The position numbers and the translations under genes were made by a program. This document shows, piece after piece, positions 17,206 to 37,315 of a DNA stretch of 37,329 bases; the first letter of the stretch is position 1; each line of letters begins with the position of its first letter. The stretch covers positions 1 through 37,329 of the forward strand of contig CAXGMD010000028.1 of assembly GCA_964010765.1 (NCBI GenBank), read 5' to 3'. The notes under the pieces are model-generated. The model saw only the letters and a list, made by a program, of their open reading frames with translations. It had not been told where the DNA came from and searched no databases. The stretch comes from an uncultured bacterium. GTDB lineage: Bacteria > SAR324 > NAC60-12.

Positions 17206-17207
17206 TT

Positions 17208-18188: not shown

Positions 18189-18203
18189 GATACCTGAAGG
18201 GGC

Positions 18204-19139
18204 TCAATTCTGCTCAAAATGATATGGCTTCGAGGGGGAGATTCTTTGCAAAACCTTGGGATCATTTGATCCCAGAAGGTCCTGTGGATTGAGTTCCTCC
18301 TGCGAACCTTCAATCTGGAATCGGCTGGCCATGCTGATAATGAGGCTTTGTGCGAGGCACATCGTAGCAGCTAATGAGTAACTGAATTTGTGGCCTGCAC
18401 CCGGTACGACAAGCGAGCAAGTAGCGTGTTTATGCAGCGGGCTCAGTTGACTATCCGTAAAAGCTAGAATGGGGATTTTCTTGCGGGCTGTTCCTTCCAC
18501 GATGTCTACAACTTCCCGCGCGTAGTAGCGGAAGGAAACTGCAACTAGCAGGGATTTCTCATTCATCAACTCTGCTTCCTCTGTGGCTAGTCCGCCAGAA
18601 CTATCGAGGAGCCGAACATTTTGTCGGAGATACAGTAACAAGTAACGAATGTAGTAGGCTACGGAGAGCGAACGCAATTGCCCCAAAACATAGATTGTGT
18701 CTGCTTCCTCTAATAACGAAACAGCCTTTTCCAGTACTTCAGGAGATATACTGTGCTTGAGGTCATTCAGAGCTGCAATGTCATTACTTACTAAGGATTG
18801 CAAGAATGAGGCGGTCGAATTGCTCGACTCCGCTGAGACCTCGTTACTGAATGATTCCAGGCGTTCTTTTGAACTGGCTGTGGAAATCAGGTGAGATTGA
18901 AAAACACGCTTCATTTCGCTGAAGCCATTGTAGCCCATGTGCTTTGCGAAACGTACCAAGGAGGAAGGTTGAACCCCAGCCTGGTCTGCAATCACTTTGA
19001 CGGATTCAACAGCCATCGCATTTGGGTTCTGAACCATAAAACGTGTAATACGCTGAAAACTTTTCTTCATCTTCGGAAACTGCTCGGTCACCTGCGTGAT
19101 CAACCGTTCATAGGTATCAGGTAGCGGGAGGTTCGTCAT
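18204..19139 (-). CDS. iolR: MurR/RpiR-family transcriptional regulator, probable inositol repressor
   Basis: N-terminal HTH (GVQPSSLVRFAKHMGYNGFSEM) and SIS domain (SFRYYARE, TDSQLSPL); divergent from iolD; AAGGA before ATG 19139. Confidence 0.82.
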   Translation of the reverse strand: MTNLPLPDTYERLITQVTEQFPKMKKSFQRITRFMVQNPNAMAVESVKVIADQAGVQPSSLVRFAKHMGYNGFSEMKRVFQSHLISTASSKERLESFSNEVSAESSNSTASFLQSLVSNDIAALNDLKHSISPEVLEKAVSLLEEADTIYVLGQLRSLSVAYYIRYLLLYLRQNVRLLDSSGGLATEEAELMNEKSLLVAVSFRYYAREVVDIVEGTARKKIPILAFTDSQLSPLHKHATCSLVVPGAGHKFSYSLAATMCLAQSLIISMASRFQIEGSQEELNPQDLLGSNDPKVLQRISPSKPYHFEQN

Positions 19140-19209
19140 CAGCATCCTTTGAAGATTGTTTTCATGTTGCTTTCAAATTTCTAAGCGAAGCAAATGAAAT
19201 TGAAGAAAA

Positions 19210-19225
19210 TTGAATTTTTGTTCAA
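19210..19225. promoter_or_regulatory. putative IolR operator between iolR and iolD
   Basis: TTGAATTTTTGTTCAA (core TGAA-N6-TTCA) overlaps the -35 of a candidate TTGAAT-N18-TAAAAT promoter (19210-19239). Confidence 0.5.
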
Positions 19226-19273
19226 CAATTTATTAAAATAGACTTTTTGAGTCAATTAGCAAGAGGAGTCCTA

Positions 19274-21118
19274 ATGAAAACGATTCGACTAACGATGGCC
19301 CAAGCACTGGTCCGCTATCTTGTCAACCAGCACACCATGATTGATGGCAAGAAGGAGCCCTTGTTTCCAGGGGTTTTTGCAATTTTTGGCCATGGCAATG
19401 TTACCTGTCTGGGTGAGGCTCTGGAATCAGTTCGTGATGTCATGCCCACGTGGCGGGGTCAGAATGAACAATCAATGGGTTTGGCTGCGGTTGCGTTTGC
19501 CAAGGCAAGCCGCCGACGTCAGATCATGGTTGCAACCTCATCAATTGGCCCTGGCTGTACAAATTTTCTGACAGCTGCCGGTACGGCCCACTCGAATCGG
19601 TTACCTGTTCTGTTCCTCTCCGGAGATACCTTCTCTAATCGGCTACCTGATCCAGTCTTGCAGCAAGTTGAACATTTCCAAGATCCAACATTGACTGTCG
19701 CGGATGCCTTCAAGTCTTGTACAAGATTCTGGGATCGAATTACTCATCCAGCACAGTTGATGGTCTCCCTCCCACAAGCAGTGGCGACAATGATGGATCC
19801 GGCTACTTCTGGCCCAGCCTTCATTGCCCTACCCCAGGATATCCAAGCAGTTGCTTACGATTATCCCGAGGTGTTCTTTGAGGAGAAGATTCACCGAAGC
19901 CCACGACCTCGGCCCGATCAGGATAGCATTGCGGAGGCAGCAGCAATTTTGAAGTCAGCCCAAAAACCGATGATTGTTGCTGGCGGAGGGGTATTTTACT
20001 CAGGTGCAGTCGCTACTCTGACCAGTTTTGCAGAAAAACACGGTATCCCAGTGACAGAGACAATCGCTGGTCGATCACAGATGCTGCATGACCATAAACT
20101 GAATGCTGGACCACTCGGTGTGATCGGTTCAAGCTCTGCAAATGCACTTGCTGCAGAGGCCGATGTCGTTCTTGCTGTGGGAACCCGTCTGCAAGATTTC
20201 ACAACGGGTTCCTGGTCTGTCTTTGGTAATGAGTCAATGCAGTTGATTGCGATCAACGCAGCCAGCTTCGACGCTCACAAGCACCGGGCGCTCTCCGTAG
20301 TTGGCGATGCCAAGGTTGGCTTGGAAGATCTAAGCAGTGCGCTGGGTAATTGGGCAGGCAGTCCAGCTTGGATCGAAACGGCACAGGGGCATTATGCAGA
20401 GTGGAACCGGACAGTAGATCAGCATTCTGGACCATCAGATGCTGTTCCTCCAAGCTACGGGCAAGTCGTTGGTGCCATCAACAGAAGCTGTGATAGCACT
20501 GACTTGGCACTGACTGCTGCAGGTGGATTACCAGGCGAGCTTTGCAAAAACTGGAAGACACGCTCAATTGGTACTTTTGACTGTGAGTTTGGCTTTTCTT
20601 GTATGGGATATGAAATCGCAGGTGGTTGGGGGGCCAAAATGGCAGACCCATCCCGAGACGTCATCGTCTTCGTTGGCGATGGATCTTACTTGATGTTGAA
20701 CAGTGACATTTACAGCACTGTGCTGACAGGACACAAGATGATCGTCATCGTCTGTGACAACGGGGGCTTCTCTGTGATCAATCGCTTACAAAATTTCAAG
20801 GGAAGCGCTTCTTTCAACAATCTCTTAAAGGACTGTAAAGTAGAGAACCTTCAAGGGGTTGATTTCGTACAGCACGCCACCAGCATGGGAGCCCTTGGTG
20901 AGCAAGTGGAAAGCATTGCAGAGCTAGAGGCTGCATTTAAACGTGCGAAAGCAGCGGATCGCACTTATGTCATCTGCATCAAAACCCAGCCATCACAATG
21001 GACGCCAGGAGATGCTTGGTGGGATGTCGGAGTCCCAGAAGTGAGTGATCGTGAAGAGGTTCGTCAAGCAAGGTCAGACCATTCCGAGGGCCAGAAACGT
21101 CAACGCTTGGGCGTGTAA
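19274..21118 (+). CDS. iolD: 3D-(3,5/4)-trihydroxycyclohexane-1,2-dione acylhydrolase (ThDP-dependent)
   Basis: Motifs MKTIRLTMAQALV, IFGHGNV, NEQSM, PDPVLQQ, EFGFSCMGYE, GDGSYLM and WWDVGVPEVS; GAGGAG RBS. Confidence 0.95.
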   Translation: MKTIRLTMAQALVRYLVNQHTMIDGKKEPLFPGVFAIFGHGNVTCLGEALESVRDVMPTWRGQNEQSMGLAAVAFAKASRRRQIMVATSSIGPGCTNFLTAAGTAHSNRLPVLFLSGDTFSNRLPDPVLQQVEHFQDPTLTVADAFKSCTRFWDRITHPAQLMVSLPQAVATMMDPATSGPAFIALPQDIQAVAYDYPEVFFEEKIHRSPRPRPDQDSIAEAAAILKSAQKPMIVAGGGVFYSGAVATLTSFAEKHGIPVTETIAGRSQMLHDHKLNAGPLGVIGSSSANALAAEADVVLAVGTRLQDFTTGSWSVFGNESMQLIAINAASFDAHKHRALSVVGDAKVGLEDLSSALGNWAGSPAWIETAQGHYAEWNRTVDQHSGPSDAVPPSYGQVVGAINRSCDSTDLALTAAGGLPGELCKNWKTRSIGTFDCEFGFSCMGYEIAGGWGAKMADPSRDVIVFVGDGSYLMLNSDIYSTVLTGHKMIVIVCDNGGFSVINRLQNFKGSASFNNLLKDCKVENLQGVDFVQHATSMGALGEQVESIAELEAAFKRAKAADRTYVICIKTQPSQWTPGDAWWDVGVPEVSDREEVRQARSDHSEGQKRQRLGV

Positions 21119-21138
21119 AATAGAAAGGAAGAATTTTA

Positions 21139-22266
21139 ATGAAGACACTAGGAATCGGACTGATCGGTTCCGGATTTATGGGGCGTTGCCATGTCAACGC
21201 CTACAATTCGATAGCCAGCATCTTTAAAGTCTCTCAAAAACCAGTCCTGAAGATGCTCGCTGATGCGTCCCCTGAACTAGCCAGTCAACAAGCAAAGGCT
21301 CTACAATTTGAACAGAGCACTGCCGATTGGCAGGAGTTGGTGCAACATCCTGAAGTTGATGTCGTTGATATCACGGCTCCAAACCATTTGCACCATCCAA
21401 TTGCAATCGCTGCGATGAACTTGGGTAAGTCCGTTTACTGTGAGAAGCCACTGGCTTGCACACTTGCTGAAGCCCAAGAGATGGCTAATTTGGCCAGGTC
21501 AAAGCAGATCCCGACACTTGTCGGGTATAACTATCTGCAGAACCCTCTCATGAGAACCGCCCGAGAGATTGTTCAGAGTGGCGAAATCGGGGAACCGATT
21601 GCTTTCAGAGGTGTACATGCAGAAGACTACATGGCTAATCCCCTATCACCATACACCACTCGACTGGATGCTTCTCAGGGAGGAGGGGTACTGTATGACT
21701 TGGGAAGTCATATCATCTCCCTAGCTCGCTACGTTGCAGGACCAATTCAAGAAGTTTTGGGGAATCTGACGACTGTCGTTCCCGAAAGACCTAGTGGAGA
21801 TACGACCCGCCTGGTTCATGTTGATGACCAAACCCACTGCCTGGTGAGATTTGAGAACGGCTGTGTTGGTACACTAGAGGCTAGTTGGATGGCCTGGGGG
21901 CGGAAGATGCACCTTGCTTTTGAGCTGACTTGTACGAAAGGGACGCTTGTCTTCAATCAGGAACAGTTCAATGAGTTGAGACTGTATGATGCCAACCAGA
22001 AAGCGGGTCGGGATGGTTTTAAAACATTACTTTCCGGACCAGACCACCCTCACTATAGTGCTTTCTGCCCTGCACCTGGGCATCAACTTGGCTTCAATGA
22101 ACTCAAGGTGATTGAGCTGCTACAACTGCTACGAGCACTGGAAGGTGGGGATGCCTGCTGGCCTGATTTCACCGAAGCTTTTGAAATTCAAAAAGTGTTG
22201 GAAGCGGTCAAGCTTTCATCAGAAGAGGCAAGGTGGTGTTCCCCACAGTCAATGATTACAAATTGA
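21139..22266 (+). CDS. Gfo/Idh/MocA dehydrogenase resembling scyllo-inositol 2-dehydrogenase / L-glucose dehydrogenase (LgdA type)
   Basis: Motifs GSGFMGRCH, CEKP, GYNY, EDYMA, DLGSH, AFCPAPGHQLGFNELK and WPDF; lies between iolD and iolE. Confidence 0.78.
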   Translation: MKTLGIGLIGSGFMGRCHVNAYNSIASIFKVSQKPVLKMLADASPELASQQAKALQFEQSTADWQELVQHPEVDVVDITAPNHLHHPIAIAAMNLGKSVYCEKPLACTLAEAQEMANLARSKQIPTLVGYNYLQNPLMRTAREIVQSGEIGEPIAFRGVHAEDYMANPLSPYTTRLDASQGGGVLYDLGSHIISLARYVAGPIQEVLGNLTTVVPERPSGDTTRLVHVDDQTHCLVRFENGCVGTLEASWMAWGRKMHLAFELTCTKGTLVFNQEQFNELRLYDANQKAGRDGFKTLLSGPDHPHYSAFCPAPGHQLGFNELKVIELLQLLRALEGGDACWPDFTEAFEIQKVLEAVKLSSEEARWCSPQSMITN

Positions 22267-22305
22267 TTGTCTGATTTCAGAAAACATTCAACTTCAGGAA
22301 AACAT

Positions 22306-23205
22306 ATGAGCGTTCAACTGGCTGTCGCCCCAATTGCTTGGTCCAACAGTGATCTGCCCCAATTAGGGGGAGACACTCCATTGGAAACATGTTTGCGGGA
22401 GAGTCGTGAGGCAGGGTTTACCGGAACAGAAAGTGGCGCTAAGTATCCGATGGATCCTGAAAAACTTGGACCACTGCTCAAACAATTCGATCTCAAGCTT
22501 GCGTCGGGTTGGTTCTCTGGAACCCTACGCGAGTGCAGTGTGGATGAAGAATGGGAAAATCTTCAGGAAATGCTCTACACCTTCAAATCCTTGCAAGCTC
22601 CTGTTTTGGTTTATGCAGAAACCAGTGGCAGTGTTCAAACAAAGCAGCAAATTCCAGTCTCCCAACGTCCTGTCATGCCTGACGAAGAATACCCAGAATA
22701 TGGGCGAAAATTGACAGAAATCGCCGATCGTATGGCAGCGTATGGAGTGCCAATGGTCTATCACCATCACATGGGGACAGTTATTGAGACAGAGCGAGAA
22801 GTCGACCTTTTGATGGCCAACACGGGGCCCAATGTGAATTTATTGATAGACACAGGACACCTTACTTTCGCAGGTGGCAATGTGGAGGCAACCACTCGTC
22901 GTCATGGACATCGGGTGAAACATGTGCACTGCAAAGACATCCGGGCAGATGTCTACAAAAGAGTTCAGGCCGAGGACATGAGCTTCCTAGACGCCGTGCT
23001 GGAGGGAGTCTTCACCGTCCCAGGAGATGGCTCGATAGACTTTCACAACTTTGCGAAGGTACTTTCCGACATCAACTACAGTGGTTGGATCGTAGTCGAA
23101 GCAGAGCAAGATCCAGAAAAAGCCAATCCCCTGATTTACTCAAGGATGGGTCATCAGCACTTGACCGATGCACTTCAAAAAGCAGCCATCGAAATTCAGG
23201 CCTGA
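22306..23205 (+). CDS. iolE: myo-inosose-2 (2-keto-myo-inositol) dehydratase
   Basis: Motifs APIAWSNSDLPQLGG, SGWFSG, YHHHMGT, DTGH, HVHCKD, FTVPGDG and VEAEQDP; AGGA before ATG 22306. Confidence 0.93.
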   Translation: MSVQLAVAPIAWSNSDLPQLGGDTPLETCLRESREAGFTGTESGAKYPMDPEKLGPLLKQFDLKLASGWFSGTLRECSVDEEWENLQEMLYTFKSLQAPVLVYAETSGSVQTKQQIPVSQRPVMPDEEYPEYGRKLTEIADRMAAYGVPMVYHHHMGTVIETEREVDLLMANTGPNVNLLIDTGHLTFAGGNVEATTRRHGHRVKHVHCKDIRADVYKRVQAEDMSFLDAVLEGVFTVPGDGSIDFHNFAKVLSDINYSGWIVVEAEQDPEKANPLIYSRMGHQHLTDALQKAAIEIQA

Positions 23206-23269
23206 GTTAGCATATTTTCTGACAGCCCTGCACTATAGGGTCTTTTCATCATTTTATCCTCACCACCGT

Positions 23270-23315
23270 CTCCCAAGAGCCTGACATTTTGCTGGGCTGT
23301 TGGGGGTTCTTTTTT
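23270..23315 (+). terminator. probable intrinsic terminator after iolE
   Basis: Imperfect GC-rich hairpin CTCCCAAGAGCCTG...TGGGCTGTTGGGGG followed by TTCTTTTTT. Confidence 0.6.
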
Positions 23316-23367
23316 CAAGAATTCCATACATTCTTCCTAGGGTGTTTCCTCACTAAAAGGAGTACTT

Positions 23368-24789
23368 ATGCGCAAAATGTTCATAAATGGAGCTTGGTCT
23401 GAGTCTCCTAAAAGCTCACCCGTGATTCGCTCTTTCAATGGAGAAACAGTGGATCACATTCCAGATGCCACAGATGAGCAAGTAGAACAGACCCTCGAAG
23501 CAGCCCACAAGGCGTCAAAAATATTGGCAAAAATACCAGCCCATGAACGAGCCAGAATCCTTAACAAGGCTGCGGCCTTGATTGATGAGCATGTGGATGA
23601 GTTGGCCAACTTGGTCTCGCTTGAAGTTGGGAAGCCCATCTCAGAAGCCCGAGGTGAAGCAGGACGTGTGGGTGAATTGTTGAGACTCTCTGTGTTTGAA
23701 GGCACTCAAGTGCGTGGGGAGAGTCTTCCTCTAGATGCTCAAGTCGGTGCTGGCAAAGACAAATTGGGTTTCACTATGAGAGTACCCTGTGGAGTCGTGT
23801 TGGCCATCACCCCCTTCAATTACCCATTACTCCTCGTAATGCACAAAATCGGACCTGCCCTAAGTGCAGGTAATGCCGTGATCTTAAAACCAGCTAAGCA
23901 GACCTCACTCTCAGCTTTACGGATGACCGAACTCTTGTACGAAGCAGGCCTTCCAGAAAATGCTTTGCAAACCATCACGGGTTCTGGTTCACGATTGGGA
24001 AAGTTGCTCTGTGCTGACAAGCGAGTGCGTAAAATCAGCTTCACAGGAAGTACTGATGTTGGGGAGCAGATTACCCAAATTGCAGGGGTCAAGAAGCTTT
24101 CCCTAGAGCTTGGTTCAAGCTGTCCCATGATAGTGATGCCTGACGCTGACCTAGACCAAGTAGCGGCTGCGACAGCAACAGGAGGCTTTGTCAATGCTGG
24201 ACAGGTTTGTATTTCACTTCAGAGAGTCGTTGTCCATCAGAAGGTTTATGCTGATTATTTAGACGCAGTCAAAAGTGCAGTGGAGGGAATTTCTGTAGGT
24301 GACCCGATGGAAGAATCTACAAAGCTCAGTGCGATGATCAACGAAGCAGAAGCAGCACGTGTGTCCGATTGGCTCCAGGAAGCAGTTCAAAGTGGAGCTC
24401 GGCTAATTACAGGGGGCGATCGTGAAAAAGCCATTGTTCAACCGACTGTCATTGCTGATGTCAAACCCTGCATGAGACTCGCCACACAAGAACTGTTTGG
24501 CCCCGCAATTGGTGTTGCACCTGTGGAGAGCTTCGACGAGGCAATGGAAATTGCCAATGGTGTGAATTATGGACTTGGAGCCAGTATTTTCACAAAAGAT
24601 GTCAACACCGCCTTACGCTTCGCTCAGCAGATTGAGAGTGGGAATGCCATGATTAACTGGTCCCCACTTTGGAGAGCTGATCTGATGCCCTACGGAGGCT
24701 TCAAGGGTAGCGGCATTGGCAAAGAAGGTCCCCGCTACGCCGTAGAAGAGATGACTGAGTTGAAGACTGTGGCGTTCCACGGCTTGTGA
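23368..24789 (+). CDS. NAD(P)-dependent aldehyde dehydrogenase (lactaldehyde/y4uC/sulfolactaldehyde dehydrogenase-like subfamily)
   Basis: Motifs ITPFNYPLLLVMHK, FTGS, LELGSS (Glu), NAGQVCIS (Cys), ELFGP and MPYGGFKGSGIGKEG; AAGGAG RBS. Confidence 0.9.
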   Translation: MRKMFINGAWSESPKSSPVIRSFNGETVDHIPDATDEQVEQTLEAAHKASKILAKIPAHERARILNKAAALIDEHVDELANLVSLEVGKPISEARGEAGRVGELLRLSVFEGTQVRGESLPLDAQVGAGKDKLGFTMRVPCGVVLAITPFNYPLLLVMHKIGPALSAGNAVILKPAKQTSLSALRMTELLYEAGLPENALQTITGSGSRLGKLLCADKRVRKISFTGSTDVGEQITQIAGVKKLSLELGSSCPMIVMPDADLDQVAAATATGGFVNAGQVCISLQRVVVHQKVYADYLDAVKSAVEGISVGDPMEESTKLSAMINEAEAARVSDWLQEAVQSGARLITGGDREKAIVQPTVIADVKPCMRLATQELFGPAIGVAPVESFDEAMEIANGVNYGLGASIFTKDVNTALRFAQQIESGNAMINWSPLWRADLMPYGGFKGSGIGKEGPRYAVEEMTELKTVAFHGL

Positions 24790-27027: not shown

Positions 27028-29235
27028 ATGGATCAAGCAACAGTGTCCTCCCCTGATCAAGCTTCAGCGTCCAAAGAAACTCTGCAAGAGTTGATGGAGA
27101 AGGAAGCCAAGACCGAGCGCCAGCTGGCACGCCCGTGGCGTTGGCTCAGCGCCGGGCTCGGGGCAGTGATGGTGATTATCTATTTCTACGGTGCAGGCTA
27201 TCAGGCTTTGGGGACTCAATATCACTTAGGAGTTTACGTCCTAATTACCTGTGTCTTGGTGTTTCTGCTCTACCCTGCCGGTGGCCGCTTTGCCCACGTG
27301 AGTATGTCCATTGGTGCCTCTCTGCTCCTCGCTATCCTCGCTTCTGGCCTGCTGATCTTTCCTGACTTTACAGCACTCTATCAGCAGTGGGGCTATTTCC
27401 TTGAGTCATGGGGCTATGATGGCGTTTTCTTTGCGCTGGAAAACGATCTTGGGGATCTTTGGTACACAGGATTGCTGACCGTTGTTTTTGCCGTTCCACT
27501 GATCTGGATTGATCAAATCCTGCTCCGTTATCGCGAACAATTGCCCAGTCTGAGTGATCATATTCTAGGAGGTGGAATCGCTGTGACGGTTCTTTACTGG
27601 ATCAGTCAGTTTGAGGCTTTGAACTACCGAGCAGGTGCAGAAAACGAAATTGACATGTTGACGAGTATCATTGGGCTGATGATCACTCTGGAAATTTGTC
27701 GAAGAGTTCTTGGCTGGTCGATCACCTTAATTGGGATCGCCATGATCTGCTTTGGCCTGTTTGGCCCCTACCTCCCTGATCTTCTGGCCCATCGTGGATT
27801 TCGCTTCGAGCGCTTAGCAACTTCCCTCTTTCTGACAACAAACGGTGTTTTTGGGGTAATGGCCAGTGTCTTGGCTACCTATGTGATTCTATTTATTTTT
27901 TTTGGTGCTTTCCTACAGAAATCAGGAGCTGGGCGTTTTTTCATAGATCTACCCTTGTCAATCGCAGGTCATAGCCCAGGTGGACCCGCCAAAGTAGCTG
28001 TCATCTCCTCCGCTTTATTTGGTTCTGTCTCAGGTTCTGCGATAGCCAACACTGTTTCAACAGGATCATTCACGATTCCTCTGATGAAACGCGTTGGGTT
28101 CAAACCTCATGTCGCTGGTGCAATCGAGCCTGCAGCGTCAATTGGTGGGATGTTTCTACCTCCAATCATGGGTGCGGGTGGTTTCTTGATGTCAGAACTG
28201 ACTGGGATTCCTTACGCCAAGATCATGCTGCTATCCGTCGGACCGGCCTTACTCTACTTCCTCTCCGTCTTGGTGATGGTCCATTTTGAAGCCAAACGCC
28301 TCGGTCTGGGCGGTCTGGATCGAAGCGAAGAGATTCCTTCATGGCAACAAGTCTTGCGGGACGGCTGGTATTTCTCTTTGCCACTGGTCGTTATCACGGT
28401 ACTGATGCTCTTTGGCCGATCACCCGGGAATGCTGCCTTTTGGGCCACCTTAACCTGCATTGTGATTAGTTGGTTCAAGCCAGAAACTAAGATGGGACCA
28501 AAAGAAATCTGGGAAGCCATCCAGACGGGAGCCCGCAATACCCTGGTGATTGGAGCGACCATTGGTGTGATCGGTGTGATTGTCGGTACGATTTCCTTGA
28601 CAGGCATGGGGTTGAAATTTTCCGACCTGGTCATCTCCACGGCAGGTGACAGTCTGCTGATGGCTGTGATTCTGATTGCGCTCGCATCTTTGGTTTTGGG
28701 AATGGGGGTACCCGTCACCGCAGCCTACTTGATTGTCGCTGTCCTCGCTGTACCTGCACTAGGTGAGTATGGGGTATCCATCATTGCAGCACACATGATT
28801 GTCTATTGGCTCTCTCAGGATTCGAACATCACTCCCCCGGTCTGTGTAGCCGCTTATGCTGGGGCTGCTATTGCTGGAGCTGATCCCTGGAAAACTGGTT
28901 GGACATCATTCAAGTTTGCCAAATTACTCTATGTAATGCCCCTAATGTTTGCTTATGTCCCTGGAATCCTGCTGGAAGGCTCTGGCCTCGAAATCTTTAC
29001 CGCCTTCCTCTCAGCATTATTGGGAACCCTGCTCTTTGGTGCTTTTGCAATGGGCTACTTCCGCCGAGGTACTCTAATCTACGAATGGATCTTACTCGGC
29101 ATCGGAACAATCCTGCTCTACTGGCCAACTTTTGAAACTGACTTGGCCGGGCTAGTCGTCGCAGTTTTTGTGTGGTGGCTGCAACAAGATGTAAATACTT
29201 CATCGAGGACTCCATCCACAGATCGTTTAGCGTAA
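27028..29235 (+). CDS. TAXI-type TRAP transporter fused permease (4TM/12TM)
   Basis: Motifs GPAKVAVISSALFGSVSGSAIANT, LPPIMGAGGF, LGMGVPVTAAY and SQDSNITPPVC. Confidence 0.92.
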   Translation: MDQATVSSPDQASASKETLQELMEKEAKTERQLARPWRWLSAGLGAVMVIIYFYGAGYQALGTQYHLGVYVLITCVLVFLLYPAGGRFAHVSMSIGASLLLAILASGLLIFPDFTALYQQWGYFLESWGYDGVFFALENDLGDLWYTGLLTVVFAVPLIWIDQILLRYREQLPSLSDHILGGGIAVTVLYWISQFEALNYRAGAENEIDMLTSIIGLMITLEICRRVLGWSITLIGIAMICFGLFGPYLPDLLAHRGFRFERLATSLFLTTNGVFGVMASVLATYVILFIFFGAFLQKSGAGRFFIDLPLSIAGHSPGGPAKVAVISSALFGSVSGSAIANTVSTGSFTIPLMKRVGFKPHVAGAIEPAASIGGMFLPPIMGAGGFLMSELTGIPYAKIMLLSVGPALLYFLSVLVMVHFEAKRLGLGGLDRSEEIPSWQQVLRDGWYFSLPLVVITVLMLFGRSPGNAAFWATLTCIVISWFKPETKMGPKEIWEAIQTGARNTLVIGATIGVIGVIVGTISLTGMGLKFSDLVISTAGDSLLMAVILIALASLVLGMGVPVTAAYLIVAVLAVPALGEYGVSIIAAHMIVYWLSQDSNITPPVCVAAYAGAAIAGADPWKTGWTSFKFAKLLYVMPLMFAYVPGILLEGSGLEIFTAFLSALLGTLLFGAFAMGYFRRGTLIYEWILLGIGTILLYWPTFETDLAGLVVAVFVWWLQQDVNTSSRTPSTDRLA

Positions 29236-29345
29236 TTTTCAGCGAGGACTTAGGAAGTAACCTCGCTCTATGATGGTTTGTCTTGGCAAACCAGAGGCGC
29301 ACTTCGTCAGTGCCCAACCCATCAACATCCCTCAAAGGAGGAACC

Positions 29346-30347
29346 ATGTTCGTTTCCCGAACAAAACGAAGGCTGATGACCCTGCTGTCGGTAACACTGG
29401 GTTTCATGCTGTTGATTACAACCCCTGCGATCGCTCAAAAAAAGTTTCTAGCCTTTTCCGGTGGACCGGACGGTGGAACTTTTCAGTATTTTTCAAATGG
29501 GATCTCTGTCTATCTTTCCAAAGGAATGGATGGCTACGATGTCTCCAATATGGCCTCTGCGGGTTCGGTAGAGAACCTTCGCCGCTTGAACAGCCGAGAT
29601 GCTGACTTTGGCATCACCTACTCAGGTGATTTGTACCTGGGACGTAATGGTCGTTTGACCAATGACACTAGGCAGTATCGCAATGTGCATGTTGTCTCCT
29701 ATCTCTACGGAGCACCTGCGCACTTGATCGTATTGGATGGATCTGGGATCAACAGTGTTGCCGATTTAGTGGGAAAGAAAGTAGCTGTTGGAGCTGCTGG
29801 TTCTGGGGCAGCTGCTTCTGCGCAGCGTTACTTTGAAAGCATGGAGGTCTGGGATAAATTCGAGCCACAATATATCGGCTATACTCAAGGAGCTTCCGCA
29901 TTGGGTGACCGTCAAATTGATGCCCTATGGGTTTTTGCAGGATACCCCAACGCTTCTGTAATTCAGGCGGCCTCAGCCAACAAGATCAATTTGTTGCAAG
30001 TCTACGCAGAGGCGGAGAAGACAGGGAAGCTTTTCAAAGATTATCCTTTCTATTCAAAGGTGGTGATCCCAGCTGGAACTTACCAAGGAGTGGATTACGA
30101 TGTTGTGTCGATTCAAGACTCAGCCTTATGGACAGCCGGACGCCATGTTCCAGAAGAGATCGTCCAGAAAGCCGCGGAGATGATTTACGACCCCAACGGG
30201 CTCAAATACCTCGTCAGCGTGAAATCCACAGCAAAAGCTATGAGCATTGACTCTGGCCTGACTGGAATTGTGACTCCTGTCCATCAGGGTGCTCAAAAAT
30301 TCTGGACAGCCAAAGGCAAGACTCTGTCAGCTGAGCAAAGTAGATAG
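29346..30347 (+). CDS. TAXI family TRAP solute-binding protein
   Basis: Signal peptide ending PAIA; motifs GGPDGGTF, SAGSVENL, GAAGSG and IPAGTYQG; GGAGGA RBS before ATG 29346. Confidence 0.9.
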   Translation: MFVSRTKRRLMTLLSVTLGFMLLITTPAIAQKKFLAFSGGPDGGTFQYFSNGISVYLSKGMDGYDVSNMASAGSVENLRRLNSRDADFGITYSGDLYLGRNGRLTNDTRQYRNVHVVSYLYGAPAHLIVLDGSGINSVADLVGKKVAVGAAGSGAAASAQRYFESMEVWDKFEPQYIGYTQGASALGDRQIDALWVFAGYPNASVIQAASANKINLLQVYAEAEKTGKLFKDYPFYSKVVIPAGTYQGVDYDVVSIQDSALWTAGRHVPEEIVQKAAEMIYDPNGLKYLVSVKSTAKAMSIDSGLTGIVTPVHQGAQKFWTAKGKTLSAEQSR

Positions 30348-30349
30348 AA

Positions 30350-30415
30350 CGCCTTAAGATCTTTTAGGGTGGATCAACAGGGTGAGCAATCTCCTATGAA
30401 TGCATCGCCCTATTA
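30350..30415 (+). terminator. tandem hairpins after TAXI gene (terminator or mRNA stabiliser)
   Basis: Hairpins CGCCTTAAG...TTTAGGGTG (30350-30371) and AGGGTGAGCA...TGCATCGCCCT (30379-30411); U-tract is weak. Confidence 0.4.
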
Positions 30416-30518
30416 CTAATTTCCAATGAACGAATCGGACTCTTCACAAAACGAGGGTGGACAAAAAGAAAAATTTAACGAAAATAATTGTGTGTTTTGA
30501 AAAAATTAGAAAATCCCT

Positions 30519-30544
30519 GATTGAGTTTGTCAGATAACTCAATC
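30519..30544. promoter_or_regulatory. putative operator upstream of the TAXI-TRAP-csiD unit
   Basis: Perfect 9-bp inverted repeat GATTGAGTT-N8-AACTCAATC enclosing TTGTCAGATAA. Confidence 0.4.
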
Positions 30545-30747
30545 TAGAATTTTCTTAAATTCCCTAGGCCTATATATCTCAGGTTTCAATTATCGAAATG
30601 ATCCTGAAAGTTGTTGTGCCTCGATTCTTTTACAAGCTGATGGTCTGCTTGTGCAAAAGACTTCTTCCTCCCTCTCAAACTTTGAGATTGTCATCTGCTT
30701 TAAAGAAGTAGAATGATCTGAGTGTTTAACTTATTCCAAAGGGTCCC

Positions 30748-31764
30748 ATGAAAATGAGTAAACTCATATGTCAAGCATTGCCACTATTCGCCACAATTCT
30801 TTTACTGTCGCTACCTCACCAAGCTTGGGCAGATAACAAAGATTACATTCTGAACACAGCTTCAACAGGGGGGACTTATCACCCTGTAGGGACAGCGATC
30901 GCCACACTGTCTAAGGTAAAGTTGCTCCCCAAAGAAAAATTTAGTCTAACTGCAGTCAACTCTGCTGGTTCTGGTGCAAACGTTCAGGCCATGGGAGCTG
31001 GGACTGCAGACTTTGCAATTCTGCAAGGCCTTTTTGGATCATATGCAGCCACAGGCACAGGACCAATTTCCGCGCCACAGAAAAACCTTCGCTCCGTCAC
31101 AATGCTCTGGCAAAACGTTGAGCAGTTTGTTGTTGCAAACTCTGCTGTCAAATCAGGCACTGTCTCCGACTTAATGGCTTTGAAAGGTTCAAAAGCAGGA
31201 ATGGGAGCAAAGAACTCAGGAACATTAGGTTCCAACAAAGTGCTTCTATCGGGGATGGGTATTGACATCGAAAAGGACTTTTCTCTGATGTACGGTGGCT
31301 ATGGTCCAACAGCAGATGCACTAGCAAACGGTCAAGTTGTGACAGCGGGTATACCGTCAGGCCCTCCAACAGGAGCAATCACAAAATTGATGGCTGGAAA
31401 CAGTGGAAAGTTTACAATTCTGGATGTGACCGCAGAAGAGGCCAAAAAGATGGACGGTGGTCGACTATTGTGGACACCCTACACTATCAAAGCAGGAACC
31501 TATCCAGGCCAAAACAAGGATATCAGCACGATTGCTCAACCAAATTTCTTAGCAGTTAATGAGAATGTTGATGAGAACCATGTTTATCTGTTGACGAAGA
31601 CTATGTTTGCAAACCTGCCATTTTTACAGGCTATTCACCCAGCGACTAAGGCAATGGCGATTGAAAAAGCAATGGCTGGATTACCTGTGCCGCTGCACCC
31701 TGGAGCTGCCAAGTACTATAAAGAGATTGGCATGACCATTCCCTCCCACCTAGTCACCAAATAA
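30748..31764 (+). CDS. TAXI family TRAP solute-binding protein
   Basis: Signal peptide ending QAWA; motifs TASTGGTYHPVG, SAGSGAN, GAKNSGT, IKAGTYPG and PLHPGAAKYY. Confidence 0.92.
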   Translation: MKMSKLICQALPLFATILLLSLPHQAWADNKDYILNTASTGGTYHPVGTAIATLSKVKLLPKEKFSLTAVNSAGSGANVQAMGAGTADFAILQGLFGSYAATGTGPISAPQKNLRSVTMLWQNVEQFVVANSAVKSGTVSDLMALKGSKAGMGAKNSGTLGSNKVLLSGMGIDIEKDFSLMYGGYGPTADALANGQVVTAGIPSGPPTGAITKLMAGNSGKFTILDVTAEEAKKMDGGRLLWTPYTIKAGTYPGQNKDISTIAQPNFLAVNENVDENHVYLLTKTMFANLPFLQAIHPATKAMAIEKAMAGLPVPLHPGAAKYYKEIGMTIPSHLVTK

Positions 31765-31771
31765 TTCCGCT

Positions 31772-31796
31772 GTGAGGCCAGTATCACTGGCCTCAT
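31772..31796 (+). other. intercistronic stem-loop between binding protein and permease (likely mRNA stabiliser or partial terminator)
   Basis: TGAGGCCAGT-ATC-ACTGGCCTCA forms a perfect 10-bp stem with no U-tract. Confidence 0.6.
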
Positions 31797-31812
31797 CCAT
31801 CCTAGGCTTCAC

Positions 31813-33987
31813 ATGGTCTCCTCATCAAATAGTGATGTTGCAGGCAACGAACACCGTGATGAGTGGTTAACTCTCGACTCTGTCAACAAGACACTGACTC
31901 AGTGGCTGCTGATTATTGGAGCCGTTGGGTTCGCTATTTGGCACGTAGCTACAAATCTGCTGATCAACGAATCGGTACTCTGGCAAAACGCAATTCACTT
32001 CGCTGGCTTCGCCATTCTTGCCTCTGTAATCTATCCAGCACGTCTTTTTGGTCGGAAAAGTATCCTTTTTGACCTTGTCTATGGGCTTGTTGCTGCCTGG
32101 GCAGCTTGTTGGGTTATCGCCTCAGAATCCAGAATCTATGAGGATACTCTGGCAATCACAGGTCAAGCTTGGCAATTCAACATTATTGATTGGTTTGCTG
32201 GGTTTGTGTTGGTTGTAGCAGCTATTGATTTTTCAAGAAGAGTATCTGGTTGGGTGATTCCCGTACTCATAATCCTAGCGCTTTCCTACATCCTGATTTT
32301 GGGTGAATACTTACCAGGGGTGTTCCGAGCAGCCAGTCTCCCACTTGATGACGTGTTGTTCCGCACAGTTTATAATGATGAAGGCCTTTTCGGAATCCTC
32401 GCCAACATTTCTTCTTCTAACATAACTTTGTTCATGATCTTCGGCGGCTTTCTGGTGATTTCTGGGGCCAGCGATTTCGTGATTGAAGTATCAAAAGTGG
32501 TGGCGGGTAGGATCCGAGGTGGATCTGCTTTTGTAGCAGTTTTATCTTCAGCTTTGACTGGAACCATCAGCGGATCTGCTGTGGCCAATACAGCTTCTAC
32601 TGGAGTAATCACTATTCCACTCATGAAATCCAGTGGTTTTCGGGGACGCTTCGCTGGAGGAGTTGAAGCAGCAGCATCCACTGGAGGGCAGCTGATGCCC
32701 CCAATCATGGGTGCTGGAGCCTTTGTCATGGCGAGCTACACAGCAATTCCATATTCGACAATTGTTTCTGTATCCATTGTCCCAGCTGTTATCTACTTTC
32801 TGTCAGTCGCCTCTGCCGTTCGTATTGAAGCAGTGAAATACCGCGTGGGAGAGGGGATAGATATGAGTGTCAGCCGAGCCAAAATCTTGGCAGGAGCACT
32901 CACGTTTATTATTCCATTGACCGTGATGATTTATTTTCTCATGGCAGGTGTAACTCCAAGCTTCGCAGCATCTGCTTCCATTGCGGTCTTAATCGGAGTG
33001 TCCTGGGTAGCTTGGCTGATTGGGAGATTGATGGGAATCGAGGAACTGCAAGCCAATGTCATGAATCTCAAACGGATCGTTGAAGCTTGTTTGGCTGGCA
33101 TGCGTGGGGGTATTTTGACCGCCATTTTGTTGGTGGCGATTGGAGTGATCAACAATGCGATTGTCACAAGTGGTATTGGCAATGGATTTTCATTGATGAT
33201 CGCTCAGTGGTCCCAAGGCTCCATCGTTTTAGCGATAGTCTTAATTGGATTGGCATCTCTGGTTTTAGGAATGGGCCTACCAGTAACCGCCTCGTATATC
33301 ATTCTTGCGATTCTGTGTGCACCTGCCTTAGCAGGAATTTTGGCAGATACCATTATTACTGAAAAGTTGGTTAATGGCCTTGCTGATCCGATGCAGGCCG
33401 CACTTTTTATGCTCGTTGAGAGTCCTCATGTTGCGAAAGTGGCAACGGGAATGACAATGGAGGAGGCTTCCAGTTTGATGTCAGCTGTCCCTTTTGAAGT
33501 GGCCATGACAATGCGCCCGATGCTGGTGGACGCTGAGGTACTGACAGGCTTTTTGCTCGTAGCACACCTAATCATTTTCTGGTTGAGCCAAGACAGTAAC
33601 GTGACTCCACCAGTTTGTCTGGCCGCCTTTACTGCAGCTGGAATTGCAAAGTCCCCACCCATGGCAACAGGGTTCCAGGCTTGGAAAGCTGCCAAGGGGT
33701 TGTATGTCGTTCCCTTACTTTTCGCCTACACACCTCTCGTTAACGGTACTGCCTTAGAAATTTGCCAGATTGGTTTTTTTGCTTTGTTCGGGATCTATGC
33801 TACAAATGCAATGATTGCACGGTACGCGGAAGGACCGATGGCAATTTGGTATTGGCCCGTCTTAATCATTGGTGCTGGGCTATCGTTCTGGCCTCTCAAT
33901 TTACTATTTAATATTTTAGGGGCGATTGCCGTGCTGGCTATTATTTTCCATAGCAACCGATGCAATAAGGTTCACTCTCAGCACTGA
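31813..33987 (+). CDS. TAXI-type TRAP transporter fused permease (4TM/12TM)
   Basis: Motifs GTISGSAVANT, GGQLMPPIMGAGAF, LGMGLPVTASY and SQDSNVTPPVC. Confidence 0.92.
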   Translation: MVSSSNSDVAGNEHRDEWLTLDSVNKTLTQWLLIIGAVGFAIWHVATNLLINESVLWQNAIHFAGFAILASVIYPARLFGRKSILFDLVYGLVAAWAACWVIASESRIYEDTLAITGQAWQFNIIDWFAGFVLVVAAIDFSRRVSGWVIPVLIILALSYILILGEYLPGVFRAASLPLDDVLFRTVYNDEGLFGILANISSSNITLFMIFGGFLVISGASDFVIEVSKVVAGRIRGGSAFVAVLSSALTGTISGSAVANTASTGVITIPLMKSSGFRGRFAGGVEAAASTGGQLMPPIMGAGAFVMASYTAIPYSTIVSVSIVPAVIYFLSVASAVRIEAVKYRVGEGIDMSVSRAKILAGALTFIIPLTVMIYFLMAGVTPSFAASASIAVLIGVSWVAWLIGRLMGIEELQANVMNLKRIVEACLAGMRGGILTAILLVAIGVINNAIVTSGIGNGFSLMIAQWSQGSIVLAIVLIGLASLVLGMGLPVTASYIILAILCAPALAGILADTIITEKLVNGLADPMQAALFMLVESPHVAKVATGMTMEEASSLMSAVPFEVAMTMRPMLVDAEVLTGFLLVAHLIIFWLSQDSNVTPPVCLAAFTAAGIAKSPPMATGFQAWKAAKGLYVVPLLFAYTPLVNGTALEICQIGFFALFGIYATNAMIARYAEGPMAIWYWPVLIIGAGLSFWPLNLLFNILGAIAVLAIIFHSNRCNKVHSQH

Positions 33988-34019
33988 TCAAAAAAGTGTA
34001 CTCAATCTTCTATCCCAAT

Positions 34020-34937
34020 ATGCACAGCTTTTCCAGTTACCCAAAAGTAGAATTAAAACCACGTTCCCACTCACTCAATCCGAGATTACAGGAACTACAT
34101 CTACCAATGGTTGCTCTTGAAAACTTTCTAGCATCTACCAAGGAAATCAGTGTTCAAGAGCTAGAATACGTTCCATATCAACGGCTTGTTCTGGCCCATC
34201 TTTTAGATGAAGAATGCGGTGGCTCACTCAAAAAAATCCTCGTGGAAACGTTACATGACCGAGCAACCGGAGCTTTGGAAATCAGTACTCCTCCCGACCT
34301 TAACAAAGACGATTTGATCAAAATTTCCACGGCAGTCAGTCACTTGGTTGGCTTACCAAATTTCGACTCCATGAGTGGAAAGTACTATGCCTGCTTTGAT
34401 GTAAAGGACACCGACAACAGTGACTCTTACCTAAGGCAAGCCTATCGTCTTTTTACCCTGCACACGGATGGGACTTACGTGGACGAAACAACCGACTGGG
34501 TCTTGCTGCTTAAGCTCAAAGAAGAAAATGCGGTGGGAGGCGAAAGCAGACTGTTACACCTGGACGATTGGGAAGAAATGGAGATCTTTGCGGAGCATCC
34601 TTTGGGACACACTCCCATGGAATATAAATCTCCACCAAGCAAAAATGTTTCAGTCTCTGTAAAGCGTCAGACATTTTATCAGCGCAATGGTCGGCCCTGT
34701 CTCTGTTTCATCGACCAGTTCGCGTATCCACATACCATCGAGCAAGCCCTTTTTCTGAGGGACATGTCTCATTCAATGGAAAAATCTCCAAAAACACTCT
34801 CCATCCCATTGCCCACCGGACACATCCTATTGATCAACAATCACTTTTGGGCACATGGCAGAGAGCCCTTCAAAAAACATCCTAAACTGTATCGGGAATT
34901 GTTGCGCCAGCGCGGTGCTTTCAACGAACAGGTTTAA
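34020..34937 (+). CDS. csiD: glutarate 2-hydroxylase (Fe(II)/2-oxoglutarate dioxygenase, CsiD/GlaH)
   Basis: Motifs NFDSMSGKYYA, DNSDSYLRQ, LHTDGTYV (HxD), LLHLDDW, PPSKNV, FIDQF, NNHFWAHGR (distal His) and RELLRQRG. Confidence 0.88.
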   Translation: MHSFSSYPKVELKPRSHSLNPRLQELHLPMVALENFLASTKEISVQELEYVPYQRLVLAHLLDEECGGSLKKILVETLHDRATGALEISTPPDLNKDDLIKISTAVSHLVGLPNFDSMSGKYYACFDVKDTDNSDSYLRQAYRLFTLHTDGTYVDETTDWVLLLKLKEENAVGGESRLLHLDDWEEMEIFAEHPLGHTPMEYKSPPSKNVSVSVKRQTFYQRNGRPCLCFIDQFAYPHTIEQALFLRDMSHSMEKSPKTLSIPLPTGHILLINNHFWAHGREPFKKHPKLYRELLRQRGAFNEQV

Positions 34938-35262
34938 AAAAATTAAACAAAATTTGATTCAGGAAAAGATCATCTTCACAACACACCGAAGTACTCTGAC
35001 TCTCCTACAAGCTTTCCCGATTCCTATTCCACCTGACTCCCACCAAGCATAGTTCACTTAGCAAAGCCATGGGTAAAAGAAGTCCGAATTATTAAAATTT
35101 AAAATATTAATTTTCTTATTGAAATTTTGTATTTAACCAAAATTTCGTAGTGTCAGTTGACTCTCTCCGCTTTACTAGGTAGAAGTTCTTTCGAATCATC
35201 AACTGAAAAGAATTAGAATTTTTTCTTTAACAAAAAGACCAAGGTTGCAAGGGAGATTTCTG

Positions 35263-35706
35263 ATGATCAAGCCAACCCATATTAAAAAAAGTATTTTGCT
35301 CTTCATTCTTTCTACTCTTGCAACGATTCCTGAGATTTACGCAGGAGACACTCCCTCAGTTAAAGGAACAAAGATTTATTTTGTTAATATTCAAGATGGT
35401 GATGTCCTCAAAAGTCCATTCATTGTCAGATTTGGTCTGAGTTCTCAGATGGGCATTGCTCCAGCCCTTGTAGATTGGCCTGACACAGGACATCATCACC
35501 TAATAATAAATTCTCCAACTCCTGATCCAAACAAAGCAATTCCTAGTAAAAGCGAGAATCATATCCACCTGAGCGGTGGTCAAACAGAATGGGAGGTTGA
35601 TCTACCATCAGGCCAGCACACGTTGCAACTGATCTTGGGAGATTATTCACACATCCCTCACGACCCTCCTGTAATTTCGGAAGTCATCACCATCACTGTG
35701 GAGTAA
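35263..35706 (+). CDS. exported DUF4399-like protein
   Basis: Signal peptide ending IYA; motifs [26 protein letters not shown] and [22 protein letters not shown]. Confidence 0.8.
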
Positions 35707-35710
35707 AGAG

Positions 35711-37315
35711 ATGAGACTCTCTGTTGGCAGTAAATTGCTCCTACTCATTACGATTGGGGGAGGATTGGCTCTTACACTGATGGCGGTTGTTCTGATCGGA
35801 ATGGAACTAAACAGGGCAGACCAACGTTTTGTTGAGCGTTATCAAGGCCTTTCAGATTTGATGTCCACTGAACTAGCTCCAGCGCTGCACCTGTCTGATG
35901 AGAGAATCATTGGGAAACGCATCCAAGCCTTTTTGAGTGTCGCAAAGAATGATCTTGTGTTACTGCGAGCCTATGATCTCGAGGGAACTCAAATTTATGA
36001 ATATGGAAAAGCAGACTTTGAAACCCAACTCAACCAACTGATCCTGAATCGATTGCCAACTCTCCAGACAGGGCAAATTGTGATTGAGCAGAATGAGGAA
36101 AATCTGGTCCTGCTTCAACCAGCTCGGCTCGCCAGCGATGAAATGGCCGGCTATGTGGGATTGATTTGGAGCCGTCTGGAGCTACAAAATCAACGTGAGG
36201 AATTAATAATTACCTCAGCATGGTTGATTCTTGCCATGCTCCTGGGAACTAGTTTGAGCTTACTAGGGGCGGTGTACCTCTTTATTACCAGACCAGTTGG
36301 ACAAATGCTTCTTTCACTTGATACAAGTTCGCGAGAAATTGCCGATTCAAATATAGAACTTTCAGAACGGACTCTGAGGCAAAGCTCTTCACTCGAAGAA
36401 ACCGCAGCTTCGATGGAACAGATGTCGAGCATCATGGAAAATAATGCTGAAGAATCCAAGAAAGCTGCTCAGTTGATGCGCGGAACTCGTCAAACTGCAG
36501 ATCAAGTTCGTGACAACCTTTTAGCTGCGGTCACCCAAGCGATCTCTTCAAACGAAAAAACCCTGACACAGTTGCAAGGAACCAACGAACGTGTCGTTGG
36601 AGCAATGTCAGCAATATCAAGCAACTCTCAAAAAATTGAAGGTATTATCAGCTTGATAAACGAGATTTCTTTCCAGACTAACCTTCTAGCCCTGAATGCG
36701 TCTGTGGAAGCTGCTCGTGCTGGGGAACATGGAAAGGGATTTGCCGTAGTTGCCACGGAGGTACGCAAACTAGCGCATCGCTCTGCAAGGGCTGCTGCTG
36801 AAATTGGGAATCTGATTGAAACCAGCAAGCAAAGTATTCAGCAAGGGAGAGAGTTTGTTAAAGATAGTGACGAATCCCTTAGTGAAATGCGAACTGAATC
36901 CCAAGCAACTCTTGAAGGCCTCCACCAACAAAGTAGTGAGAATCTGGAAGCAATTCTTCGAGCGGTCATTGAGTTCTCCGAAGTGATGGAGAGCATAGAG
37001 GTCGCCTCCGCAGAGCACGCCAATGGGATCAACCAGGTCAACAAAGCTATTATGGACATGGACCAACTGACTCAAGAGAATGCAACAATGGTCGAGCAGA
37101 GTGCTGCAGCTAGCGAACAAATGGCTTCGCAGGCAGAGCGTTTACGTCAACTCTTTGTCCCAGGACAACGTCGCAACTACCAGAAAAAGGCCACCACCAA
37201 AAAAAGAATTGAGGGCGACCACAATCTAAAAGATTCCAAATCACTCCCTGAGCCCAACTACAAAAAATCACGCTTTACAAATCAATCAAACACTGAAGAA
37301 GATTTTTTTGAGTAG
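35711..37315 (+). CDS. methyl-accepting chemotaxis protein with periplasmic sensor domain
   Basis: Two TM helices around a ~130-aa periplasmic domain; motifs [44 protein letters not shown] and [15 protein letters not shown]. Confidence 0.95.

Follow-up and report, generated by a model that had tools for sequence, protein, structure and literature searches.

A chemoreceptor of the SAR324 phylum with 22 extra residues in each arm of its signalling hairpin

The receptor and the length of its hairpin arms

The DNA analysed in this work, hereafter the window, is a stretch of 37,329 nucleotides (positions 1 to 37,329 of contig CAXGMD010000028.1, GenBank assembly GCA_964010765.1) from an uncultured marine bacterium of the SAR324 phylum. 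Close to its right end it bears, on the forward strand, a gene for a methyl-accepting chemotaxis protein (MCP) of 534 residues (P0001), and both arms of the signalling hairpin in this receptor are 22 residues longer than those of the E. coli chemoreceptor Tsr. The sole Pfam match of the receptor is MCPsignal (PF00015), which scores 143.7 bits against a gathering cut-off of 34.6 and covers aa 290–454. The limits of the two transmembrane segments (TM1 and TM2) were read by eye from the translation, and the other parts were delimited by HMMER alignment to Tsr and by an AlphaFold2 (AF2) model. The anatomy of the receptor is as follows.

35711..37315, + strand: methyl-accepting chemotaxis protein, 534 aa (P0001), a single open reading frame with Pfam MCPsignal
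35735..35803, + strand: TM1, about aa 9–31, a hydrophobic stretch in the translation lying within the modelled helix 5–60
35804..36205, + strand: periplasmic sensor domain, about aa 32–165 (about 134 residues), alpha/beta in the AF2 model; Foldseek
36206..36286, + strand: TM2, about aa 166–192, a hydrophobic stretch in the translation, continuous with the N arm in the modelled helix 156–336
36287..36724, + strand: N arm of the signalling hairpin, aa 193–338 (HMMER against Tsr, AF2)
36395..36400, + strand: E229/E230, N-arm methylation-site consensus, corresponding to Tsr E303/E304 (consensus scan, alignment)
36509..36583, + strand: N-arm extra segment, aa 267–291, in which 22 of the 25 residues lack a Tsr counterpart (HMMER gaps, landmark offset)
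36719..36739, + strand: hairpin tip, aa 337–343, with the tip glutamate E339 (invariant columns)
36728..37165, + strand: C arm of the hairpin, aa 340–485 (HMMER against Tsr, AF2)
37094..37099, + strand: E462/Q463, C-arm methylation-site consensus, corresponding to Tsr E492/E493 (consensus scan)
37166..37312, + strand: disordered C-terminal tail, aa 486–534, with a predicted local distance difference test score (pLDDT) below 50, ending in EEDFFE (aa 529–534, 37295–37312)

The sensor domain gave no Pfam family at E ≤ 0.1, and Foldseek matched it to sensor domains of the PAS/Cache type, for instance those of WalK and CitA. Nor was a HAMP domain matched by Pfam anywhere in the receptor, in which TM2 leads directly into the N arm. 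The methylation-site consensus is [ASTG][ASTG]xx[EQ][EQ]xx[ASTG][ASTG]; a strict scan with it picked out two putative sites in the receptor (E229/E230 and E462/Q463) vs. four in Tsr. The columns of the hairpin tip are invariant across 36 aligned sequences. In the AF2 model, the helices 156–336 and 338–482 are unbroken, with block-mean pLDDT of about 82–89 through both arms, the inserts included, and the model thus predicts that the helices continue through the extra segments.

For the comparison of arm lengths, the E. coli tsr reference sequence was taken from NC_000913. The landmark motifs EETAASMEQ, QTN, EVR and QEN start at residues 229, 322, 350 and 455 of the receptor. Between the methylation-site EE and the tip glutamate the receptor measures 109 residues vs. 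87 in Tsr, and between the tip glutamate and the QxN motif 116 residues vs. 94, i.e., each arm is longer by 22. Hence the receptor does not have the landmark distances of the 36H class (87/94, with 18 heptads per arm). The same difference emerged from HMMER alignments to the Tsr chains of the PDB. In the N arm, query residues 205–393 were aligned to Tsr 279–445 with two gaps of 15 and 7 residues, 22 in total, both within aa 267–291. In the C arm, query residue 393 pairs with Tsr 445 and query residue 406 with Tsr 436, so that the ten Tsr residues 436–445 are matched twice (by aa 384–393 and by aa 406–415) and 22 residues are left over, which may be placed as any 22 within aa 384–415. The position-matrix scan described below, a third independent measure after the landmarks and HMMER, again gave +22/+22. 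These results reproduced the hand counts made in an earlier, sequence-only reading of the window: the three measures agree on 22 residues per arm, none of them giving 21 or 14, and the segments proposed in that reading (aa 266–287 and aa 390–411) agree with the zones found here.

The blocks flanking the extra residues align to Tsr without internal gaps, with 45% identity in the N block, 63% in the tip and 42% in the C block. When the same comparison with Tsr was made for P0260, a receptor with a 44H/40H-like tip, it produced +21/+21 in the form of two clean 21-residue gaps, indicating that, by this method, a longer receptor of the ordinary kind does fall on the heptad lattice; the receptor studied here exceeds this one by a single residue per arm. 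In each arm, the extra 22 residues lie at the level of the glycine hinge.

Relatives with the same and with other arm lengths

The spacing proved to be highly conserved. Among 121 close proteins, 120 show 109 and/or 116 in every landmark found, and the remaining one has 91/98; no insertion or deletion relative to the receptor is present in 77 of the 78 distinct hairpins of the family alignment. In 59 family members the N motif carries V instead of E.

To place the receptor among its wider relatives, position matrices of three ungapped landmark blocks were run over 152 proteins, namely the 150 best representatives of 50% clusters, the receptor itself and P0099. Confident landmarks were obtained for 143 of them, the nine others being fragments or low-scoring. 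Offsets from the 36H spacing (N arm, C arm) were (0,0) in 107 proteins, (+22,+22) in 16 and (+33,+33) in 10, while (+4,+4), (+21,+21) and (+65,+65) were found once each; seven proteins gave aberrant offsets that come from duplicated signalling domains. The +4/+4 protein, P0099, is 79% identical to our receptor outside the inserts and has 18 residues fewer per arm, the missing residues being 276–293 and approximately 377–394 in the numbering of the receptor. Four full-length cluster members, which come from several sources, have the +4 variant, and four have the +65 variant. The loss of 18 residues per arm in P0099 equals five turns of undistorted helix. The +65/+65 protein, P0141, is a +22-type receptor in which about 43 residues are duplicated once more, symmetrically in the two arms, so that the whole hendecad-bearing module is repeated.

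The genome from which the window comes encodes six receptors. One of them, on contig C91, has the Tsr spacing, and a paralogue on contig C62 has landmark distances of 120/127, i.e., +33/+33. This paralogue and the 10 representatives at +33/+33 have exactly one more 11-residue unit per arm than the receptor.

A tree was built from 214 columns, with the insert columns excluded, by a quick search with a single outgroup. All 33 insert-bearing rows fell on one side of a branch supported at 93 in the Shimodaira–Hasegawa approximate likelihood ratio test (SH-aLRT), and 108 of the 109 36H receptors fell on the opposite side (SH-aLRT 91). P0099 (+4) came out as the sister of our receptor (99), and P0141 (+65) was placed inside the +22 group (97). 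Taken together, these data show that the receptor belongs to a clade that changes its length by symmetric non-heptad steps (+4, +22, +33 and +65 in comparison with 36H).

The distribution of the length variants was studied by a scan of 88 genomes of the SAR324 phylum, for which 150 of 415 matches were listed. Among the matches listed, the +22 class (near-full-length, with no net insertion or deletion relative to the receptor) accounts for at least 26 matches in at least 20 of the 88 genomes, and the +33 class (net +22 relative to the receptor) for at least 10 matches in at least 10; the other listed matches have net differences of −2, −16 and −44, corresponding to +21, +14 and 0 per arm. Two of the listed matches (G077:C180 and G079:C18) have a net difference of −37; provided that their alignments run end-to-end, the two arms would be unequal, at 0 and +7 relative to 36H. 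As judged by source names, +22 members are also present in a gammaproteobacterial metagenome-assembled genome and in Magnetococcales, and +33 members in SAR324 and in ‘Deltaproteobacteria bacterium TL4’. The 109/116 spacing itself is present in assemblies from NCBI, JGI, ENA, Logan and Tara. A sample of 121 genomes of Pseudomonadales yielded 19 matches, of which 18 have the 36H spacing and one is partial and uninformative, with no +22 or +33 form among them. A scan of genome contigs, comprising 74 loci, revealed no +22 taxa beyond orthologues of our receptor: 66 loci are at (0,0), three are near-identical orthologues, one is at (+14,+14), two are incomplete and two are at (−5,−14), their N landmarks being weak. 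The insert-bearing clade is found mainly in SAR324.

Core periodicity, hinge residues and the interpretation of the extra segments

The following features of the hairpin bear on the packing of the extra residues.

36497..36616, + strand: N-arm zone of approximately 11/3 hydrophobic periodicity, about aa 263–302 (sliding windows −75 to −63)
36551–36553, + strand: N281, and 36584–36586, + strand: N292, both inside the N-arm 11/3 zone
36641..36643, + strand: G311, and 36806–36808, + strand: G366, a glycine pair at −28/+27 from the tip
36866..36964, + strand: three successive C-arm 11-residue units, aa 386–396, 397–407 and 408–418 (alignments, class consensus)

Hydrophobicity was averaged within each class with position-based weights, and Fourier spectra were computed; for the sliding windows, of 33 residues, the positions of the centres are given relative to the tip. 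In the methylation zones, all three classes (36H, +22 and +33) have their best period at 3.48–3.50, the power being, for instance, 52 at 3.5 vs. 2.3 at 3.67. The 106 36H relatives keep to 3.41–3.57 in all sliding windows whose distance to the tip exceeds 21 residues, save for the C-arm window +23 (3.62). In the +22 class (88 sequences), the best period is 3.65–3.68 at windows −75 to −63 and 3.67–3.70 at windows +57 to +69; in the +33 class (11 sequences), it is 3.65–3.70 at −86 to −70 and 3.64–3.70 at +58 to +78. The 11/3 zones of the N and C arms sit at approximately equal levels of the hairpin, their window centres spanning about 12–16 residues. With a hendecad segment understood as a core period near 3.67 over at least 11 residues, such segments are found in both arms at the level of sequence, the N arm giving a weaker signal in one window.

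The local period of 3.65–3.70 stems from 11-residue units with paired core residues in the class consensus. The C-arm unit, hydrophobic at its positions 5 and 8, is present in one copy in 36H, in three copies in the +22 class and in four in the +33 class. In our receptor, 22 of the 33 residues of the three-unit stretch are extra relative to Tsr; L390/M393, L401/L404 and L412/I415 form core pairs at a spacing of 11 residues, and the intervening heptad positions 396/397 and 407/408 are polar. The sequence-only reading had taken two pairs of similar motifs as traces of a duplication, a view that did not hold. The copies of AISSN start at residues 277 and 301, and their distance of 24, not 22, makes them poor evidence of duplication. 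SDESLSEM (386) and SSENLEAI (408) do stand 22 residues apart, as had been stated, and prove to be members of the 11-residue series 386/397/408. What remains is a resemblance of periodic motifs, and no tandem or direct repeats of note were found at the DNA level in the hairpin region.

The residues at the hinge change together with the length. The 36H hinge glycines at −51, −50 and +48 are conserved in 97%, 85% and 99% of the 106 36H relatives, and no glycine reaches 50% at the hinge levels in the +22 or +33 classes. The lack of the GG hinge in the N arm, already remarked in the sequence-only reading, was confirmed, and the C-arm hinge glycine turned out to be absent as well. In the N arms of the insert classes, the 11-residue unit bears a conserved asparagine, and these asparagines are spaced 11 residues apart: at −58 (N281, 95%) and −47 (N292, 100%) in the 88 sequences of the +22 class, and at −69, −58 and −47 (91%, 91% and 82%) in the +33 class. 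Nearer the tip lies a glycine pair at −28/+27 (G311/G366 in our receptor), conserved at 98%/94% in the +22 class and 82%/73% in the +33 class; in the 36H relatives glycine at these positions is below the listing threshold of 30%, the pair being specific to the insert classes. As a side observation, G311/G366 may represent a relocated hinge.

Compared with Tsr and the 36H class as a whole (PDB 1QU7, 3ZX6 and 8C5V), the receptor has a closely similar tip, the 63% identity extending over 89 residues, as well as methylation motifs at homologous places and an equal-armed hairpin, and 36H is its sister group on the tree. It differs in the 22 additional residues per arm, in the local 11/3 periodicity and in the lack of counterparts to the Tsr hinge glycines G340, G341 and G439; moreover, it has no HAMP domain, and its sensor domain is PAS/Cache-like, whereas that of Tsr is a four-helix bundle. 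The receptor is therefore not a member of 36H.

The offsets, their symmetry and conservation, the clade and the local periodicity are direct observations, and the continuity of the helices is what the model predicts. Most probably, though by no great margin over an even chance, they reflect a 36H-type hairpin with two hendecad units added per arm at the level of the glycine hinge. With a period of 3.67, three turns are completed by eleven residues, and a coiled coil built in this way is expected to be locally straight. Two such units would thus allow the core to remain continuous, free of the one-residue phase error of a 22-residue heptad coil (22 = 21 + 1). The suggestion of the sequence-only reading that 22 stands for 2 × 11 is supported, at the level of sequence, by the +33 class, the local period of 3.65–3.70, the 11-residue units and the spacing of the asparagines. 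Hendecad (11/3) coiled coils in general, as described in PMC8016460, share the 11-residue core periodicity, and a near-straight or slightly right-handed bundle is expected of them.

According to this model of two hendecad units per arm, the protein would work as a normal transmembrane chemoreceptor. The periplasmic PAS/Cache-like domain would bind a ligand, the signal would run down TM2 straight into the methylation helix with no HAMP domain between, adaptation would act at the consensus sites E229/E230 and E462/Q463, and the Tsr-like tip would control CheA via CheW. The extra residues would continue both helices with a core repeating every 11/3 instead of 7/2 residues and, judging by the supercoil geometry expected for such a core, the four-helix bundle should run locally almost straight and un-supercoiled through the insert. 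In the N arm, a ladder of core asparagines would stand in place of the hinge glycines, and in the C arm their place would be taken by small polar residues. With its polar core asparagines and its lack of glycines, the insert probably serves as the flexible coupling that the hinge provides elsewhere. Relative to a 36H stalk, the gain in length would be about 3.3 nm (22 × 0.15 nm). From the end of TM2 to the tip there are 146 residues in the receptor vs. 177 in Tsr, of which HAMP accounts for about 51. With no HAMP domain present, the added length would bring the tip to about the same depth from the membrane as in Tsr, as a matter of arithmetic alone and for this subfamily only.

Several points weigh against this interpretation, and some of them speak for three ordinary heptads plus one ‘skip’ residue per arm (22 = 21 + 1), accommodated by a local bulge or overwinding with no extended hendecad segment. 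In the N arm, the core positions form a series spaced by seven (228 to 263, 270) that resumes at 278, 285, 292 and 299, and hence this core also admits a heptad notation in which one step, from L270 to I278, has eight residues. When one 41-residue window was taken over the N arm of the +22 class, the power was 43.3 at 3.5 and 41.4 at 3.67, with the best period at 3.58, which does not separate the two periods. Since MCP cores use positions a, d and e, counting steps of three and four cannot distinguish two stutters from one skip. The evidence for hendecads consists of hydrophobic periodicity and motif spacing, and SAR324 orthologues dominate the +22 average despite the position-based weights. 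The AF2 model was computed for a monomer from an alignment of 36 rows, with a predicted template modelling score of 0.34. On the tree, P0255 has a very long branch and falls with the +33 class in spite of its +22 offset, and the quick tree, rooted on a single outgroup, is compatible with either insertion or deletion between 36H and the longer forms. The idea of the insert as a general compensation for the missing HAMP domain was abandoned, as many other +22 members do carry HAMP. For all that, a skip residue seems unlikely to us: it does not explain a period of 3.65–3.70 maintained over about 12–16 residues of window centres in both arms, nor the polar residues at 396/397 and 407/408 between C-arm core pairs that recur every 11 residues, nor a sister class that differs by exactly 11 residues per arm and bears its asparagines at −69, −58 and −47.

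Another possibility is that the receptor is an ordinary member of a catalogued minor class, 42H, and that its odd residue is devoid of functional meaning. Alexander and Zhulin are said to have based the heptad classes, in 2007, on symmetric multiples of seven. The arms of the receptor comprise 147 + 146 = 293 residues, or 41.9 heptad-equivalents; by length, at about 21 heptad-equivalents for each arm, the receptor agrees with 42H and may belong to it. Magnetococcales, which were sequenced early, include a +22 member, and its tie to the 2007 data set is a guess on our part. A 42H class is indeed listed in MiST, according to PMC6943060. Nevertheless, the offset from 36H was 22 and not 21 in every measurement, so that it is not a symmetric multiple of seven; the sister forms at +33, +4 and +65 fit no listed class length, and both the periodicity and the conservation of residues change with the insert. 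We regard membership of 42H as rather improbable, and the question bears on naming and novelty, not on anatomy. As for an artefact, either a misaligned repetitive coiled coil or an assembly error, coiled-coil arms can indeed slip by seven residues or more when pairwise alignments are weak, which makes the HMMER spans obtained with 2ch7 and 6s18 mutually inconsistent. An artefact is nevertheless extremely improbable, given that the flanks align to Tsr without internal gaps at 45%, 63% and 42% identity, that the three independent measures agree, and that the spacing recurs across NCBI, JGI, ENA, Logan and Tara assemblies and, among the matches listed, in at least 20 of the 88 SAR324-phylum genomes.

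The literature searched, outside which lie about 1.7 million PMC articles and most subscription papers, contained no description of hendecad or other non-heptad inserts in MCP hairpins. The sole non-heptad chemoreceptor element found there is a four-residue ‘phase stutter’, which PMC11571029 describes in Tsr between HAMP AS2 and the methylation helix MH1. Like the inserts, it is a non-heptad discontinuity in a chemoreceptor helix and sets the packing phase of two bundle segments. Unlike them, it comprises four residues at the HAMP junction in one helix per subunit, whereas the inserts comprise 22–33 residues, in both arms and in the middle of the hairpin. In PMC7184735, the McpA-like receptors PA0180 and VCA1088 of gammaproteobacterial F7 clusters are described as unassignable to a heptad class. 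By that description, they resemble the present receptor in lying outside the heptad classes and in being linked to clusters that use 36H receptors. This lead was dropped after four 20-kb Pseudomonadales regions around 36H receptors were found to hold only (0,0) receptors. The non-heptad lengths of the present clade suggest how its own members might escape assignment to any heptad class.

The heptad length classes serve as the framework in which chemoreceptors are classified and assigned to pathways and the height of their arrays is predicted. Underlying it is the assumption that the four-helix bundle stays in register only when lengths differ by symmetric multiples of seven. The symmetric steps of 11, 18, 22 and 43 residues in the present clade would represent a second way to stay in register, through a changed local periodicity. 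In this sense, the clade is a natural experiment on the passage of conformational signals from the methylation bundle to the kinase-control tip, since here the segment on their way lacks hinge glycines and differs in core geometry.

Neighbouring genes and chemosensory clusters

The receptor gene is preceded by a gene for a secreted protein, and chemosensory clusters are present on two other contigs of the same genome (G000).

35245..35706, + strand: gene for a secreted DUF4399 protein (Pfam DUF4399, 102.2 bits), ending 4 nt before the receptor start
Contig C62, L083:1592–10546: STAS, receiver-nucleotide cyclase, CheA, CheW, MCP (+33), CheR, CheB
Contig C49, L084:95–5135: receiver-nucleotide cyclase, CheA, CheW, CheB

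The DUF4399 gene stands directly upstream of the receptor in all four distant orthologous loci (L085–L088), which together with the window makes five loci, and its product contains invariant His-rich motifs. The DUF4399 protein may be a periplasmic partner or co-sensor of the receptor. A prediction of its complex with the periplasmic sensor domain scored 0.00 and 0.01 against a mark of 0.32, which is evidence neither way. In three of the four distant loci a CheB gene adjoins the DUF4399-receptor pair, and in two of them a CheW gene as well. No che genes stand beside the pair in this genome, where the rest of the window is made up of inositol-catabolism and transporter genes.

The C62 and C49 clusters are paralogous, and in each of them a receiver domain is fused to an adenylate/guanylate cyclase domain. 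The CheW fragment found beside the +22 receptor in relatives is 48–50% identical to the CheW of C49 and 38–40% identical to that of C62, and the comparison of CheB between C49 and C62 was equivocal. These identities give a weak hint that the +22 receptor might belong to a pathway of the C49 type and the +33 receptor to that of C62. The fused cyclase domains suggest that the output of both pathways could be the synthesis of cyclic nucleotides rather than flagellar control.

Drawing these lines together, we propose, only tentatively and as a possibility that we ourselves find somewhat doubtful, that the clade is an unrecognised lineage of chemoreceptors. Their stalks would vary by 11-residue units; a glycine-free, asparagine-cored and near-straight hendecad module would replace the hinge as the flexible coupling; and the +22 and +33 receptors of the same genome would serve two paralogous pathways with receiver-nucleotide cyclase output and not the flagellar motor. 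In that case, the heptad-only rule would be incomplete.

In our receptor, some 45 disordered residues lead to the terminal EEDFFE, whose F532 is invariant in 22 orthologues. The corresponding termini in this genome are DDFSEF in the receptor encoded on contig C8 and LPDFE in the +33 receptor. These three ends may be variants of a C-terminal tether motif for the adaptation enzymes CheR and CheB.

As for the remainder of the window, positions 8733–24786 hold a set resembling that for myo-inositol catabolism, which comprises IolB/KduI, PfkB-DUF2090, a thiamine pyrophosphate (TPP) enzyme and a xylose-isomerase-like protein, along with GFO/IDH/MocA oxidoreductases, aldehyde dehydrogenases and an ATP-binding cassette (ABC) sugar transporter. 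Positions 27028–34934 hold two pairs of TAXI-type tripartite ATP-independent periplasmic (TRAP) transporter genes and a CsiD-like dioxygenase.

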